From sequence record NC_028780.1: a stretch of DNA of 64,000 nt, one strand, 5' to 3'. Below the pieces are notes generated by a model that saw only the letters and a list, made by a program, of their open reading frames with translations, did not search any database and was not told the origin of the DNA. This document shows positions 57,585 to 62,643 of the stretch, piece by piece (the first letter of the stretch is position 1; each line of letters opens with the position of its first letter). The position numbers were made by a program, and so were the translations under genes. The DNA comes from Escherichia phage slur07.

Positions 57585-58309
57585 ATGAAACTAATCTTTT
57601 TAAGCGGTGTAAAGCGTAGTGGAAAAGATACTACTGCTGATTTTATCATGAGCAATTATTTTGCAGTTAAATACCAACTTGCTGGTCCTATTAAGGATGC
57701 ATTGGCTTATGCATGGGGCGTATTTGCAGAAAACACTGACTATCCTTGCTTAACTCGTAAAGAGTTTGAAGGAATTGACTATGATCGTGAGACTAATTTA
57801 AATCTGACTAAATTAGAAGTAATCACGATTATGGAACAAGCATTTTGCTATCTTAATGGTAAAAGCCCGATTAAAGGTGTGTTTGTTTTTGATGACGAAG
57901 GACAAGAATCAGTTAATTCCGTAGCATTTAACAAGATTATTGACGTTATAAATAATATTGAAGATCAATGGTCAGTCCGTCGTCTGATGCAAGCCCTAGG
58001 TACGGATTTGATTGTTAATAACTTCGACCGCATGTACTGGGTAAAATTATTTGCTTTAGATTATCTTGATAAATTTAACTCAGGTTATGATTATTATATC
58101 GTTCCTGATACTCGTCAAGATCATGAAATGGATGCGGCTAGGGCGATGGGTGCTACAGTAATTCATGTAGTTCGTCCTGGTCAAAAATCCAATGATACAC
58201 ATATTACAGAAGCTGGATTGCCAATTCGTGATGGCGATTTAGTAATTACAAACGATGGTTCTCTTGAAGAACTTTTTTCTAAAATTAAAAATACACTAAA
58301 GGTACTATA

Positions 58310-58310
<1 letters not shown>
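57585..58310 (+). CDS. 1: deoxynucleoside monophosphate kinase
   Basis: 241 aa from MKLIFLSGVKRSGKDT P-loop; ORF extends upstream to 57546. Confidence 0.9.
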
Positions 58311-59007
<697 letters not shown>

Positions 59008-59016
59008 TTTCACAAA

Positions 59017-59051
59017 GTTGTTTACATGGGGTTTTAGTAGTGATACTATTA
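59017..59051 (+). promoter_or_regulatory. early promoter / stem-loop cassette (GTTTAC ... TGATACTAT within GGGTA...TACCC)
   Basis: GTTTAC -35, 17 nt spacer, extended -10; 24 nt identical to copy at 59331. Confidence 0.5.
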
Positions 59052-59067
59052 CCCTATCAAAACAAAT

Positions 59068-59319
59068 GTGAAATTGGAGAACAAAATGAAAACGTATCAA
59101 GAATTTATTGCTGAAACTGCTGATGTAAAAGTTGAGTTTATTTACACTGGCAAGAAAGATAAAATGGGTGAAATGCCTCATGGAGTTCTTCGTGATGCAT
59201 TAGATGATTTCGGTCAACTCGGTGGTGAAGAGTTTGGCGATTACTTTGTTATCTATGGCCCGGCAAAAGTCATTGAGAAATGGGCTGATAAATATAAATC
59301 AATTTTTCGTAAAAAATAA
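59068..59319 (+). CDS. candidate capsid-targeted internal protein (IP-like, 83 aa)
   Basis: N-terminus MKTYQEFIAE matches recalled capsid-targeting sequence ending in an I-A-E gp21-type cleavage site. Confidence 0.7.
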   Translation: MKLENKMKTYQEFIAETADVKVEFIYTGKKDKMGEMPHGVLRDALDDFGQLGGEEFGDYFVIYGPAKVIEKWADKYKSIFRKK

Positions 59320-59320
59320 G

Positions 59321-59355
59321 TTTACTTTTAGATAGGGTAGTGATACTATTACCCT
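59321..59355 (+). promoter_or_regulatory. early promoter / stem-loop cassette, second copy
   Basis: GTTTAC + 17 nt + TGATACTAT; shares GTAGTGATACTATTACCCTATCAA with 59017 cassette. Confidence 0.5.
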
Positions 59356-59377
59356 ATCAACTACCGAGGAGAATAAA

Positions 59378-59563
59378 ATGAAACGTTGTGAATTAATTCG
59401 AAATGTTGCTATTGCAATTTCTGCTTCTGCATTTAGTTTTTCAATGTTTGTTGGATTTATATGCGGATTATTGACTACAGCAGAAAATGTATTTTCACTT
59501 GTAGTAGCATTTTTAATTGGTTTAATTGCTATCGTTATGGATAAAATTTCTAAAGGTGAATAG
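59378..59563 (+). CDS. small hydrophobic membrane protein (61 aa, two predicted TM helices)
   Basis: Strongly hydrophobic; GGAGAATAAAATGAA initiation cassette. Confidence 0.55.
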   Translation: MKRCELIRNVAIAISASAFSFSMFVGFICGLLTTAENVFSLVVAFLIGLIAIVMDKISKGE

Positions 59564-59566
59564 AAT

Positions 59567-59945
59567 GTATAAAGTGTACGCTGATTATCAGGCTAATCCA
59601 TCTGAAAAGCCAGATTGCCAAATTGGATGGGCTCATGATACCCTGCTTGAAGCAGTAGATGCTGCTCAAAAATTAGGATATAGTTATGTAGATATTGTTC
59701 AACCTGGTGGAACAGTTATTACTCTTGAAGAGTTTAATAATATTAAACCAAACTTTTTACTTTTTGCAGGTGATAATTATTATCCTCGTGGTGGATATGC
59801 TGATTTAATCGCGAAAGCCGCTACCGAAGATGAACTCCGTGATATTATCAAAGAAAATGAAAACAAACCGATGTATGGTTCTAATCGCTTTGATTGGTGG
59901 CAAATTGTAAATGCCCACACTCATACTATTGTTGATGAAGGCTGA
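59567..59945 (+). CDS. hypothetical protein (126 aa)
   Basis: ATG 59567 with AAAGGTGAA RBS (track ORF from 59526 overlaps upstream gene). Confidence 0.5.
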
Positions 59946-59947
59946 TA

Positions 59948-60238
59948 ATGATTCTTTATGCTAAAGTATCATCCATTGAAAATGGATATAAATATGATCA
60001 AGACGCGGCTAAAGCCTTGATTGATGATTATGGCATTTTAACATGTTTTGAAGTTGAAAAGGTTTACATTGACCGTTCATCTTCTCAGGTTAAATTAGTG
60101 AAGGAAGACCGTAAATTTAATACAGTAAATTTTGATTTCTTTATTGAAACAGAAAAAGGTCCTCTTGAATATGATATTTTCAAGAATCCTTTGGGTCTTG
60201 AATGTATTCAGAAAACGTATATTAATGCAGCGTGGTGA
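59948..60238 (+). CDS. hypothetical protein (96 aa)
   Basis: ORF in same-strand array. Confidence 0.5.
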   Translation: MILYAKVSSIENGYKYDQDAAKALIDDYGILTCFEVEKVYIDRSSSQVKLVKEDRKFNTVNFDFFIETEKGPLEYDIFKNPLGLECIQKTYINAAW

Positions 60239-60240
60239 AA

Positions 60241-60756
60241 ATGAATATTTGTTTAGGTACTACAATTCCGCAGGGTTACGTAATTGATGTCACTACCTGG
60301 GAAAATGATGGTGACAACTATAAAACTAAAACACTGTTTGGCGTAGAAGAGCATGAAATCTTACAATTCCAATATCTTTTAAAGAAGTTTAAAAGCAGAC
60401 ATTCTAGTACTAAAGCTGAACGTTATTGTGGTAATGGCTTGTTCAGCGAGCAATCGCTTTTTATTTATGAATACTTGGTTGAAGGACTGTTCTCAGAACA
60501 ACTTTATCCAGAATTCATTAAAAAGGTCTTTGACATAGAAGTTGACCTTGGTAATAAATCCGAAGAAGACGAAGAACGTGTATTTGACTTATTCTTTGTG
60601 AATGGTAATAAAGTGCTTGAAGGACTTATTAATATTTTAGGCAGTGCTTCTGAGTATTATGATTATGATTTTTTGCGTGTAGTTGAGAGTGTTAAATACT
60701 CTTATATAGAAAAAGAAATTGTTTTGCCGACCGTTAAAATGTTTAATTTGCTTTAA
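60241..60756 (+). CDS. hypothetical protein (171 aa)
   Basis: ATG 60241; track ORF begins at 60232. Confidence 0.5.
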   Translation: MNICLGTTIPQGYVIDVTTWENDGDNYKTKTLFGVEEHEILQFQYLLKKFKSRHSSTKAERYCGNGLFSEQSLFIYEYLVEGLFSEQLYPEFIKKVFDIEVDLGNKSEEDEERVFDLFFVNGNKVLEGLINILGSASEYYDYDFLRVVESVKYSYIEKEIVLPTVKMFNLL

Positions 60757-60781
60757 GAATTATTTGTTATTATTAATTCAT
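60751..60781 (+). promoter_or_regulatory. candidate MotA-dependent middle promoter for the tRNA cluster (exact repeat of 888-918)
   Basis: 31 nt identical to 888-918, TGCTTTA box and TATTAT -10. Confidence 0.4.
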
Positions 60782-60842
60782 ACCGCACTGATTAATACCC
60801 TCTATCATCAAGGGTTCTTGTTTGAGAGCCTTTGTTAATAAT

Positions 60843-60915
60843 TGGGAATTAGCCAAGTTGGTAAGGCACTGGATTTTGATTCCAGGATGCAAAGGTTCGA
60901 GTCCTTTATTCCCAG
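60843..60915 (+). tRNA. tRNA-Gln (anticodon UUG)
   Basis: Cloverleaf: acceptor TGGGAAT/ATTCCCA, anticodon stem CTGGA/TCCAG with loop TTTTGAT, GGTTCGAGTCC T-loop. Confidence 0.85.
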
Positions 60916-60916
60916 C

Positions 60917-61003
60917 GCGAGAATGGTCAAATTGGTAAAGGCACAGCACTTAAAATGCTGCGGAATGATTTCCTTGTGGGTTCGAGTCCCACTTCTCGCA
61001 CCA
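60917..61003 (+). tRNA. tRNA-Leu (anticodon UAA), long variable arm
   Basis: Acceptor GCGAGAA/TTCTCGC, anticodon loop CTTAAAA, T-loop GGTTCGAGTCC, encoded CCA. Confidence 0.85.
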
Positions 61004-61008
61004 AATTT

Positions 61009-61082
<74 letters not shown>

Positions 61083-61086
61083 ATTT

Positions 61087-61737
61087 ATGACTCGTCGTGA
61101 GACGCTCAGTTCTTTATTAGGGACTGATATGCATTTTTATCTTTATAAAATAACAAATAAAATTAATAATAAAATTTATATTGGTGTGCATTCTACCGAA
61201 AATTTAGATGATGGATATATGGGTTCTGGTAAATTATTAAAAAGAGCCCAAGATAAATATTGTATAGAAAATTTTTCTAAAGAAATATTAGAGTATTTTG
61301 ACGATAAAGAATCTATGCTTGAAGCCGAGAAAAATATTGTCACAGAAGAGTTTTTAAATAGACCAGATGTGTATAATTTAAAACTTGGAGGTGAAGGTGG
61401 ATGGGATCATATAAATAATTATCCTATGACAGATCAGCAACGCGAATTAATTTCATTGGGTGTTAAAAAGGCACATTCTAACGGAAAATTAAAAGGATGG
61501 TCTTCAAATGGATTAATGAAGAATGGCTTTGCTGGTAAAACTCATTCTCAAGAAGCTAAACGTAAAATAGCAAAAGCAAACGAAGCAAAAGTTTCTGCGG
61601 ATGAAAGAAAAAGAAGAATAGAAATTTCTAAATTATATGATTTTTCTAAACGTGGCGAATTGTCTAAATATGCTAAGCATATTGGCGTAAGTCATACTCA
61701 AGCAAAAAGAATTCTAAATCAAATTAACAATATATAA
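61087..61737 (+). CDS. segB: GIY-YIG homing endonuclease embedded in tRNA cluster
   Basis: ORF between tRNA-Gly and tRNA-Ser; FYLYKITNKINNKIYIGVHS GIY-YIG module and DDGYMGSGK shared with segE; start may be ATG 61129. Confidence 0.82.
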   Translation: MTRRETLSSLLGTDMHFYLYKITNKINNKIYIGVHSTENLDDGYMGSGKLLKRAQDKYCIENFSKEILEYFDDKESMLEAEKNIVTEEFLNRPDVYNLKLGGEGGWDHINNYPMTDQQRELISLGVKKAHSNGKLKGWSSNGLMKNGFAGKTHSQEAKRKIAKANEAKVSADERKRRIEISKLYDFSKRGELSKYAKHIGVSHTQAKRILNQINNI

Positions 61738-61743
61738 ATATTT

Positions 61744-61833
61744 GGAGGCGTGGCAGAGTGGTTTAATGCACCGGTCTTGAAAACCGGCAGTCGCTCCGGC
61801 GACTCATAGGTTCAAATCCTATCGCCTCCGCCA
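61744..61833 (+). tRNA. tRNA-Ser (anticodon UGA), long variable arm
   Basis: Acceptor GGAGGCG/CGCCTCC, anticodon stem CCGGT/ACCGG with loop CTTGAAA, T-loop GGTTCAAATCC, CCA. Confidence 0.85.
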
Positions 61834-61839
61834 GTTTTT

Positions 61840-61915
61840 GCTGATTTAGCTCAGTAGGTAGAGCACCTCACTTGTAATGAGGACGTCGGCGGTTCGATTC
61901 CGTCAATCAGCACCA
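61840..61915 (+). tRNA. tRNA-Thr (anticodon UGU)
   Basis: Acceptor GCTGATT/AATCAGC, anticodon loop CTTGTAA, T-loop GGTTCGATTCC, CCA. Confidence 0.85.
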
Positions 61916-61916
61916 A

Positions 61917-61991
61917 GGCCCTGTAGCTGGAAGGTTCAAGCAAGCGACTCATAATCGCCAGATGGTGGTTCAATTCCACCCAGGGCCACCA
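61917..61991 (+). tRNA. tRNA with CAU anticodon (Ile-lysidine type or Met)
   Basis: Acceptor GGCCCTG/CAGGGCC, anticodon loop CTCATAA, T-loop GGTTCAATTCC, CCA. Confidence 0.8.
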
Positions 61992-62003
61992 AATTATGAA
62001 TTA

Positions 62004-62090
62004 GGGGAGTTATCCCGTAGAGGTAGCGGTGTGGACTGTAAATTCATTGTCATTGCGACTCGGGTGGTTCGACTCCACCACTCCCCACCA
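62004..62090 (+). tRNA. tRNA-Tyr (anticodon GUA), long variable arm
   Basis: Acceptor GGGGAGT/ACTCCCC; anticodon loop CTGTAAA; variable arm GTCATTGCGAC resembles bacterial tRNA-Tyr; T-loop GGTTCGACTCC, CCA. Confidence 0.7.
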
Positions 62091-62094
62091 ATTT

Positions 62095-62169
62095 GGATGT
62101 GTAGCTCAATGGCAGAGCGATCGCCTGTTAAGCGATTGGTTATAGGTTCGAATCCTATCACGTCCGCCA
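62095..62169 (+). tRNA. tRNA-Asn (anticodon GUU)
   Basis: Acceptor GGATGTG/CACGTCC, anticodon stem ATCGC/GCGAT with loop CTGTTAA, T-loop GGTTCGAATCC, CCA. Confidence 0.75.
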
Positions 62170-62173
62170 AATA

Positions 62174-62249
62174 CGAGGCATAGCTCAGAAGGAAGAGCAA
62201 GGACCTTCTAAGTCCTGGGTCGTAGGTTCGATCCCTACTGCCTCGACCA
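62174..62249 (+). tRNA. tRNA-Arg (anticodon UCU)
   Basis: Acceptor CGAGGCA/TGCCTCG, anticodon stem AGGAC/GTCCT with loop CTTCTAA, T-loop GGTTCGATCCC, CCA. Confidence 0.85.
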
Positions 62250-62565
62250 GACAAGAAGCCGGGTCGCTACCGGCAAGTCGTCGGACTGATGTTCCCTGTT
62301 TAAGGACTGGCATTAATAAATCTTTATGTTTTGTTAATGCCCCCTTATATCACAGCAGAAACGGCGCACCGAATTATCGATTCGAGGAAATATCTTTGCC
62401 ATAAGCCGAGTAGCGTTTTTGACGGAACGTTCGGATATGGTCGAGATATGGCCTTTTAAAAATATTGAGTAGCGTCAACTACTTAATAACCGGGTTCGAA
62501 TCCCGGCGTTTCGTACAAACACTTGCCTTAGCAGGTGGAACCCCGACAAGGTTGCCGCAAGGCTT
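62250..62565 (+). ncRNA. structured non-coding region after tRNA-Arg: candidate small stable RNAs or degenerate tRNA
   Basis: No credible ORF; tRNA-like T-arm CCGGGTTCGAATCCCGG at ~62490; 8 bp inverted repeat GGCATTAA...TTAATGCC at ~62309-62341; ends at intrinsic terminator. Confidence 0.35.
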
Positions 62566-62593
62566 AGCCCCGACCGAAAGGTTGGGGCTTTTT
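62566..62593 (+). terminator. intrinsic terminator (AGCCCCGACC-GAAA-GGTTGGGGCT plus TTTT)
   Basis: 10 bp stem, tetraloop, T-run; near-identical copy at 63125. Confidence 0.75.
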
Positions 62594-62643
62594 AGTATAA
62601 ATATAGTAGTATATTAAATCCACGAATTAAAACAGGAAATAAG

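Follow-up and report, generated by a model that had tools for sequence, protein, structure and literature searches.

Directly upstream of its transfer RNA (tRNA) cluster, Escherichia phage slur07 (NC_028780.1) carries four small co-oriented open reading frames (ORF1 to ORF4), and the question raised by this locus is whether these form one functional module or a set of separate genes and what their products might do for the phage. The locus was analysed within a stretch of 64,000 nucleotides (nt) of the phage DNA, referred to here as the window. An initial annotation, made from the sequence of the window, had described four uncharacterised early ORFs led by a two-helix membrane protein and proposed a single host-interaction or anti-defence module in a region that is usually variable. 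That observation was confirmed while its interpretation was supported in part. The best explanation, which we hold with slightly better than even confidence, is that these are four early genes, the orthologues of T4 trna.4, trna.3 and trna.2 followed by a member of the phrog_2290 family, which would act as independent accessory effectors and not as one co-functional module. Their products would be made in the first minutes of infection. The genes themselves make up the protein-coding head of a run of same-strand genes extending into the tRNA cluster of the phage.

The identity and layout of the four genes are secure. The ORFs of 61, 126, 96 and 171 amino acids were found at the positions first described (Table 1), all on the + strand with intergenic gaps of 1-2 nt, a purine-rich Shine-Dalgarno-like run at every start and an early-promoter cassette upstream, and no competing ORF above 50 amino acids was found on the opposite strand over ORF1-4. 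ORF1 was identical to T4 Trna.4 at 61 of 61 residues and matched phrog_1692 (E 6e-35 over 1-61), ORF2 was 57% identical overall to T4 Trna.3 and matched phrog_1411 (E 1e-55 over 1-126), ORF3 was 96% identical to T4 Trna.2 over 91 amino acids, with differing final residues, and matched phrog_2023 (E 2.4e-48), and ORF4 matched phrog_2290 (E 2e-68 over 1-170). In PHROGs all four families bear the label 'unknown function'. The description of the ORFs as uncharacterised was therefore right as to function but not as to identity, since all are already catalogued T4-family hypothetical genes and three have had T4 ORF names for decades. Like T4 trna.4, trna.3 and trna.2 (UniProt P13322, P13323 and P13324), ORF1-3 are positioned between an ipI-type locus and tRNA-Gln in the same order, on the same strand and behind the same kind of promoter cassette, the difference being that the window phage retains a fourth gene that T4 lacks at this locus. 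The finding mainly re-identifies long-catalogued T4 'dark matter' genes and in that respect its value is modest.

The region 59000-60800 was 99.4% identical to that of Escherichia phage AndreasVesalius (Tequatrovirus) and was matched by 842 phage records, nearly all of them T-even relatives. ORF1, ORF2, ORF3 and ORF4 were found by tblastn in 789, 762, 802 and 582 phage records, respectively. The proposed variability of the region was not borne out by presence and absence across relatives, as ORF1 occurred in 504 records at 95% identity or more, compared with 501 records at 90% or more for the core gene gp1 that served as a yardstick (1411 records in total). ORF1-3 are near-universal among close T-even relatives, and variability was limited to the upstream internal-protein gene, the N-terminal half of ORF2 and the presence or absence of ORF4. 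The ratio of non-synonymous to synonymous substitution rates (dN/dS) was 0-0.33 in all comparisons, including 0.33 for ORF2 and 0.25 for ORF3 relative to T4 and 0.17-0.28 for ORF1, ORF3 and ORF4 relative to JS98, and ORF1 differed from its T4 counterpart by four synonymous and no non-synonymous changes. All four ORFs are genuine protein-coding genes under purifying selection. Their designation as early genes was also upheld for the T4 orthologues, where trna.2, trna.3 and trna.4 RNA was classed as early and Trna.2 and Trna.3 were detected as early proteins (PMC9697503 supplement). In a T4 transposon screen in E. coli K-12, trna.2, trna.3 and trna.4 were non-essential with insertion indices of 0.92, 0.975 and 0.94 (bioRxiv 10.1101/2025.11.20.689424 supplement).

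The separate distribution of each gene favours four independent early accessory proteins. A sample of 69 IMG/VR loci with an ORF4-family member was clustered at 60% identity into 41 lineage groups, and ORF1-3 adjoined the ORF4-family gene in only two of these. ORF3 occurs alone in Seunavirus, the C-terminal domain of ORF2 travels alone in other phages, and T4 and roughly half of the close relatives have lost ORF4 while keeping ORF1-3; ORF4 was present at 80% identity or more in 245 records compared with about 500 for ORF1-3. A counter-defence or host-takeover role for the four products is plausible only on circumstantial grounds, namely the neighbourhood (Acb1 and internal proteins), the early timing and a pulldown with the DRT1 defence system described below. 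T4 internal proteins IPI-IPIII inhibit type IV restriction. ORF1-4 resemble 57B/Acb1 and IPI-IPIII in lying in the early region, adjacent to such genes, and in being dispensable on laboratory hosts as judged from the T4 orthologues, and differ from them in having no shared sequence or fold and, relative to the internal proteins, in having no capsid-targeting leader. The four genes sit in a proven counter-defence neighbourhood and would be expressed in the first minutes of infection.

ORF1 is credibly predicted to be an inner-membrane hairpin of two transmembrane helices with both ends inside (N-in/C-in) and nearly all of its residues within the bilayer. The two-helix membrane protein of the initial annotation was reproduced by a hydropathy check, which gave a grand average of hydropathy (GRAVY) of 1.22 and two hydrophobic stretches at residues ~10-32 and 38-54 with TTAEN between them. 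Both ends are short and charged: MKRCELIR at the N end has many basic residues, and the C end reads DKISKGE. Several features recur in the relatives from JS98, EcS1 and a Klebsiella phage: the protein starts with MKRxExIRN, its first helix has many small residues, the turn between the helices is polar and Thr-rich (LLTTxEN in most), and the C-terminus is charged (MDKI or MNEI). The Trna.4 homologue was the first gene after the internal-protein locus in T4, JS98, EcS1 and Klebsiella phage phi1_146055. EcS1 has a second small membrane protein at this locus. Identity of 99% or more was found in 427 records, and such extreme conservation points to a conserved partner rather than an arms-race target. 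ORF1 would most likely act by binding or oligomerising in the membrane on a conserved partner, which would explain its near-invariance. Among the small membrane proteins of T-even phages it ranks with the most conserved.

In ORF2 a variable N-terminal half, residues 1-60, precedes a C-terminal domain of ~65 amino acids that is conserved and has the pattern NFLLFAGDNYYPxGGY...FDWWQIVNA, the two halves being 27% and 86% identical to T4 Trna.3, respectively. The N-terminal halves represent old divergent alleles, of which the window phage carries one type and T4 and JS98 share another. Precomputed matches to PF26894 were present on all but one of 24 database homologues of ORF2. The C-terminal domain was found as a stand-alone protein in Salmonella phages Melville and STP4-a, in EcS1 and in Klebsiella, Staphylococcus and Bacillus phages, all of them uncharacterised. 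In EcS1 (locus L103, 2673-3066) and phi1_146055 (locus L104, 2687-2872) the Trna.4 homologue was followed by such a stand-alone YYPxGG domain protein of ~61-63 amino acids. This arrangement would fit a variable specificity part, the N-terminal half, joined to a constant part, the widespread C-terminal domain. The AlphaFold2 model of ORF2 was confident, with a predicted local distance difference test (pLDDT) score of 85; comparison with PDB folds gave no match (best E 0.19) and BFVD gave only uncharacterised phage proteins. Trna.3 was also considered as a tandem duplication of one beta-alpha-beta-beta unit, which was rejected at the sequence level (hhalign probability 0.06).

Homologues of ORF3 were restricted to T-even-like phages and Seunavirus, and only 11 ORF3 loci turned up in IMG/VR, all from T4-like phages or Seunavirus. 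PF27001 was found on the homologues among precomputed matches. The Trna.2 homologue of Seunavirus PVP-SE1 is followed after 10 nt by a gene for a tRNA nucleotidyltransferase. A 2026 study (PMC13275509) compared active DRT1 with a reverse transcriptase (RT)-dead control and found just two T4 proteins enriched with the active form, Trna.2 and Inh. ORF3 would probably bind host or defence proteins, and the link of Trna.2 to the DRT1 defence system by this recent pulldown is part of what could make the finding useful.

ORF4 was 98.8% identical to an RB32 ORF next to tRNA.2 and 44% identical to JS98 orf138, which is annotated by reference to RB69 ORF151c and not to any T4 gene. The order in JS98 is trna.4, trna.3, trna.2, orf138 and tRNAs, as in the window. 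Since the same four-gene order is found in JS98, the array is ancestral and the T4 state derived, and the ORF4 gene is ancestral to the group of Tequatro-, Mosig- and Dhakavirus. No counterpart of ORF4 was found at the T4 locus, where 8 kb were checked and the rest of the T4 genome was not searched. The T4 junction reads GGTAAATATGCTTTAAG, which resembles a direct joining of the start of ORF4 (GGTGAAAATGAATATTTG) to its end (AAAATGTTTAATTTGCTTTAAG), and an imperfect repeat of ~14 nt is present at the junction (AAAATGAATATTTG and AAAATGTTTAATTTG; window 60232-60262 and 60735-60756, T4 locus L002 4115-4140). This suggests that T4 lost ORF4 at this locus by deletion between short imperfect repeats. 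The junction keeps the MotA box of the tRNA middle promoter, and the deletion would have spared the last ORF4 bases because this promoter overlaps the end of ORF4. The absence of ORF4 from the T4 locus may help explain why the family went unstudied, and T4 may provide a natural knockout in which to attempt complementation.

The ORF4 family is large and diverse. Homologues at ~30-45% identity were found in Klebsiella, Enterobacter, Aeromonas and other large phages, and a profile search of 1.84 billion representatives returned 1006 ORF4-family clusters at E <= 1e-3, with the proteins all stand-alone and of ~130-190 amino acids. Among 125 members ~30% identical to ORF4, all of which matched phrog_2290, residues E21, D23 and D25 within a W-E-N-D-G-D stretch were invariant and G12, W20, N22, G34, F50, G64, N65, R146 and V147 were near-invariant. 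In the low-confidence AlphaFold2 model of ORF4 the W-E-N-D-G-D stretch forms the turn of an N-terminal beta-hairpin. An invariant acidic loop of this kind would be typical of a site for catalysis or for binding a metal or ligand. ORF4 gave no Pfam relation and no match among PDB folds, and a PDB sequence search with the 125-sequence profile gave no credible match. The best PDB sequence match, Elongator Elp1 (E 0.005), was dismissed as a low-complexity helical stretch, and readings of the motif as HAD-type DxDxT, Toprim or KxDG were dropped as the residue pattern and predicted secondary structure did not fit them.

Genes of the ORF4 family were frequently located beside tRNA genes. Of the 41 groups, 20 had a tRNA gene at most 4 kb from the ORF4-family gene, 13 had one at most 1 kb away and 11 had one at most 500 nt away; in 11 groups tRNAs flanked the gene on both sides. 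All of the 249 tRNAs near ORF4-family genes were on the same strand as the gene. In Klebsiella- and Enterobacter-type T4-like phages the gene was inside the tRNA array; further examples included jumbo contigs of 355-378 kb and a Synechococcus phage, and on one contig a tRNA-Arg lay 33 nt upstream and a tRNA-Leu 55 nt downstream. Because of this recurrent placement among same-strand tRNA genes, ORF4 is suggested to cooperate with the phage tRNAs, one example being a counter-defence role towards immunity systems that target tRNAs. We consider it a tentative proposition, and on the whole an unlikely one, that ORF4 defines a large unstudied phage family functioning with tRNA clusters, whose members would be small enzymes or inhibitors with an acidic loop. 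On that reading ORF4 might take part in the maturation or repair of phage tRNAs or neutralise host immunity directed at tRNAs. The association with tRNA clusters and the invariant acidic motif are what is new here, amounting to one modest lead, and no description of the function of phrog_2290, of the W-E-N-D-G-D loop or of the tRNA-cluster association was found in the papers and records consulted. The family gives a concrete starting point for testing why protein genes are retained within the tRNA arrays of large phages.

Other neighbours of the ORF4-family genes were heterogeneous, including a NADAR-like gene in five of the 41 groups and CCA-adding-enzyme-like and Acb1 genes in three each, and a conserved partner gene for ORF4 was rejected on this basis. 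In Klebsiella phage phi1_146043 (locus L004, 3558-4007) the gene directly 3' of the ORF4 homologue, annotated as 'virion structural protein', is a candidate NADAR/YbiA-type ADP-ribose hydrolase by its motif alone (SNFAPH...DG..C.S.EGFLQSLKF). A NADAR-type identity would presumably place it with the T4 anti-DarTG factor 30.3/AdfN. On a metagenome contig (locus L008, 2528-7061) a distant ORF4-family member lies between NMNAT-Nudix and NAMPT genes, an NAD+ salvage pair, with genes for a PIF1-like helicase and a T4-type RNA ligase coming next. In Synechococcus phage S-CBWM1 (locus L070, 4396-4713) ARAGORN identified a permuted transfer-messenger RNA (tmRNA)-like gene directly after a partial ORF4-family match, within a tRNA cluster of ~11 genes.

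Several points weigh against the interpretation of ORF1-4 as independent early effectors and against its tRNA component. Searches of ORF1-4 against Pfam, NCBIfam and PADLOC gave nothing above noise, and PDB sequence searches for ORF2-4 and fold searches for ORF2 and ORF4 gave no informative match; none of the four belonged to a PADLOC defence or Pfam anti-defence family, a dedicated anti-defence library not having been searched. Small membrane proteins commonly go undetected in proteomes. The translation of ORF1 is predicted, and the Trna.4 protein was undetected in the T4 proteome (PMC9697503 supplement). In the transposon study trna.2, trna.3 and trna.4 showed no phenotype in one conditional-essentiality comparison (bioRxiv 10.1101/2025.11.20.689424 supplement), and the DRT1 pulldown of Trna.2 was left without follow-up by its authors (PMC13275509). 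The reading of W-E-N-D-G-D as a loop is tentative given the low confidence of the ORF4 model (pLDDT 63). Twenty-one of the 41 ORF4-family groups had no tRNA within 4 kb, and the likelihood of chance co-location within +/-4 kb, put at ~10% or less because this span covers only a few percent of these genomes, is an estimate and not a computed null. The link between ORF4 and tRNAs could also be inherited synteny within a broad T4-like superfamily.

Among the alternatives to independent effectors, the one that survives best is that the proteins, chiefly ORF4 and possibly ORF3, serve the neighbouring tRNAs of the phage, either in maturation or CCA-end repair of a polycistronic tRNA precursor or in shielding phage and host tRNAs from anticodon or acceptor-stem nucleases. 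We regard it as doubtful overall, even though the tRNA link is the most specific hypothesis suggested for ORF4 and, weakly, for ORF3. It draws on the arrangement in Tequatro-, Mosig- and Dhakavirus phages, where the genes immediately precede the tRNA cluster and share its strand, on the recurrence of the ORF4 family in or next to same-strand tRNA clusters in groups as different as jumbo contigs and a cyanophage, and on the CCA-adding-enzyme-like and tRNA nucleotidyltransferase neighbours noted above, although for ORF3 the evidence comes from two genomic contexts only. The three soluble proteins are all acidic (isoelectric point 4.5-4.8) and have no recognisable RNA-binding, nuclease or transferase signature, T4 still has eight tRNA genes at the locus from which it lacks ORF4, and 21 of the 41 groups lack a tRNA within 4 kb. 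As tRNA clusters are found in gene-shuffling hot spots, the co-location may be passive.

A single coherent module led by the membrane protein, with superinfection exclusion or one anti-defence activity as its function, was the proposal of the initial annotation and is improbable. The gap-free co-transcription behind one promoter cassette, the trna.4-trna.3-trna.2-ORF4 order kept in JS98 and the adjacency to Acb1 and to an internal-protein gene, of the class that inhibits type IV restriction, would all agree with it. The separate phyletic patterns of the genes given above, with the independent loss of ORF4 and the occurrence of ORF3 and of the ORF2 C-terminal domain on their own, are at odds with a shared function, as is EcS1, which retains ORF1 plus only the C-terminal domain of ORF2. 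No positive evidence was obtained for superinfection exclusion by ORF1. Like T4 Imm and Sp, ORF1 is a small early membrane protein. T4 Imm also has two predicted helices. Unlike these proteins, ORF1 is shorter, has nearly no extramembrane residues and shows no detectable sequence relation to them; it gave no Pfam family above threshold (the best was a chance-level match to DUF7554, E 0.064), and therefore none of the superinfection-immunity families in that library, nor was there an NCBIfam match, and neither library placed it in the Imm or Sp families. The near-invariance of ORF1 would also be a misfit for an arms-race protein. Independent effectors remain preferred over functionless filler, that is, ORFs passively carried by cassette shuffling and read-through to the tRNAs, which is very improbable: trna.2, trna.3 and trna.4 are dispensable in T4 on K-12, T4 lost ORF4 at the locus with no obvious cost and the region is rich in mobile promoter cassettes (PMC2839356), but filler is contradicted by the dN/dS values, by the near-identity of the ORF1 protein across records while synonymous sites differ from T4, by the invariant residues kept through some 1000 ORF4-family clusters at ~30% overall identity and by the production of Trna.2 and Trna.3 proteins in T4.

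Table 1. Features of the ORF1-4 locus, with coordinates in the window
Feature	Coordinates	Strand	Description
Gene 57B	58552-59007	+	Directly upstream; full-length Acb1, Pfam PF23474, E 2.6e-60
Cassette copy 1, early promoter/stem-loop (PeSL-type)	59020-59060	+	Upstream of 77-aa internal-protein gene
77-aa internal protein gene	59086-59319	+	Capsid-injected; phrog_8111 'internal virion protein', E 3.9e-51
Cassette copy 2, early promoter/stem-loop	59320-59360	+	17 nt upstream of the ORF1 start; likely to drive the four-ORF unit
ORF1	59378-59563	+	61 aa; T4 Trna.4 orthologue, phrog_1692
ORF2	59565-59945	+	126 aa, acidic; T4 Trna.3 allele, phrog_1411
ORF3	59948-60238	+	96 aa, acidic; T4 Trna.2 orthologue, phrog_2023
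ORF4	60241-60756	+	171 aa, acidic; phrog_2290 family
MotA-type middle promoter for tRNA cluster	60747-60773	+	Pattern scan
Conserved stem-loop	60809-60834	+	Just before tRNA-Gln; fold z only -2.3; identical sequence in T4
First tRNA block (Gln, Leu, Gly)	60843-61082	+	ARAGORN, Rfam; downstream of ORFs, same strand

The duplicated promoter cassette proposed for the unit was real and consisted of a 41-nt direct repeat (repeat family D1) with 80% identity between the two copies. Both copies contain GTTTAC, a 17-nt spacer, TGn and TACTAT with a hairpin over the -10 element. In copy 1 the -35 element GTTTAC is at 59020-59025, followed by TGn and the -10 element TACTAT at 59044-59049, and an extended hairpin spans 59008-59073 (-26 kcal/mol, z = -5.3). 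In copy 2 the -35 element is at 59320-59325, TG at 59341-59342, TACTAT at 59344-59349 and the Shine-Dalgarno sequence GAGGAG at 59366-59371, with a hairpin at 59331-59358 (-16.4 kcal/mol, z = -3.5). Early promoter/stem-loop (PeSL) cassettes are known from T4-type phages (Arbiol et al. 2010, PMC2839356; Comeau et al. 2014, PMC4122927), and both copies have their features, namely an intergenic repeat that has a predicted strong early promoter of the sigma-70 type, a stem-loop over the -10 element, and a Shine-Dalgarno sequence and ATG located 3'. As with PeSL cassettes the copies bracket swappable small genes, here internal-protein genes, whereas the hairpin is A+T-rich and not of the polyG/polyC type of RB49 and phi1. 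The hairpin is without a following T-run, so terminator activity is uncertain. T4 also carries both cassettes, one before ipI and the other before trna.4, and AndreasVesalius has three cassettes and two internal-protein genes (locus L001, 2251-2820) compared with two cassettes and one gene in the window, which fits the cassette-mediated gain and loss proposed in the PeSL papers.

By homology copy 2 is the likely promoter of ORF1-4, which follow it uninterrupted. The MotA box TTTGCTTTA (60747-60755) overlaps the stop codon of ORF4 and is followed by a 12-nt spacer and the -10 element TATTAT at 60768-60773, using the consensus and spacing from PMC2988021. The site aligned with PtRNAE, a T4 middle promoter whose start has been mapped to 72593. 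We infer that the early transcript reads through ORF1-4 into the tRNA cluster and that the tRNAs also have a second, MotA-dependent promoter. The single transcription unit first proposed is thus consistent with the one cassette and the gap-free layout, but would not stop at ORF4, running on into the tRNAs. Terminator-like matches inside ORF4 and most sigma-70-like matches were at chance level. A perfect T4 late-promoter motif, TATAAATA, at 59987-59994 (+) in ORF3 is also present in T4 trna.2; it was not taken as a late promoter and was treated as coding-constrained because it lies inside conserved codons (NGYKYD).

The order of genes on the + strand was gp3, gp1 (dNMP kinase), 57A, 57B, the 77-amino-acid internal-protein gene, ORF1-4 and tRNA-Gln, -Leu and -Gly, followed by a GIY-YIG endonuclease gene and six further tRNAs. 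This is the arrangement of the T4 57B-to-tRNA region in opposite orientation. The product of 57B is the anti-CBASS phosphodiesterase Acb1, for which PHROGs and several GenBank records still give 'RNA ligase' or 'hypothetical'. The 77-amino-acid internal protein bears an MKTYQEFIAE capsid-targeting leader, and its gene is allelic to T4 ipI, not encoding T4 IPI itself, and fills the ipI slot between 57B and trna.4. The later tRNAs of the cluster reach 62249, and an Rfam scan of 58300-62600 returned tRNAs only and no other RNA elements. The GIY-YIG gene (61087-61737, +) encodes a SegB-like homing endonuclease and lies between tRNA-Gly and tRNA-Ser. A close relative (locus L010) has tRNA-Pro at this position, the endonuclease gene being absent there, and T4 segB sits elsewhere in the cluster, between tRNA-Arg and tRNA-Ile.

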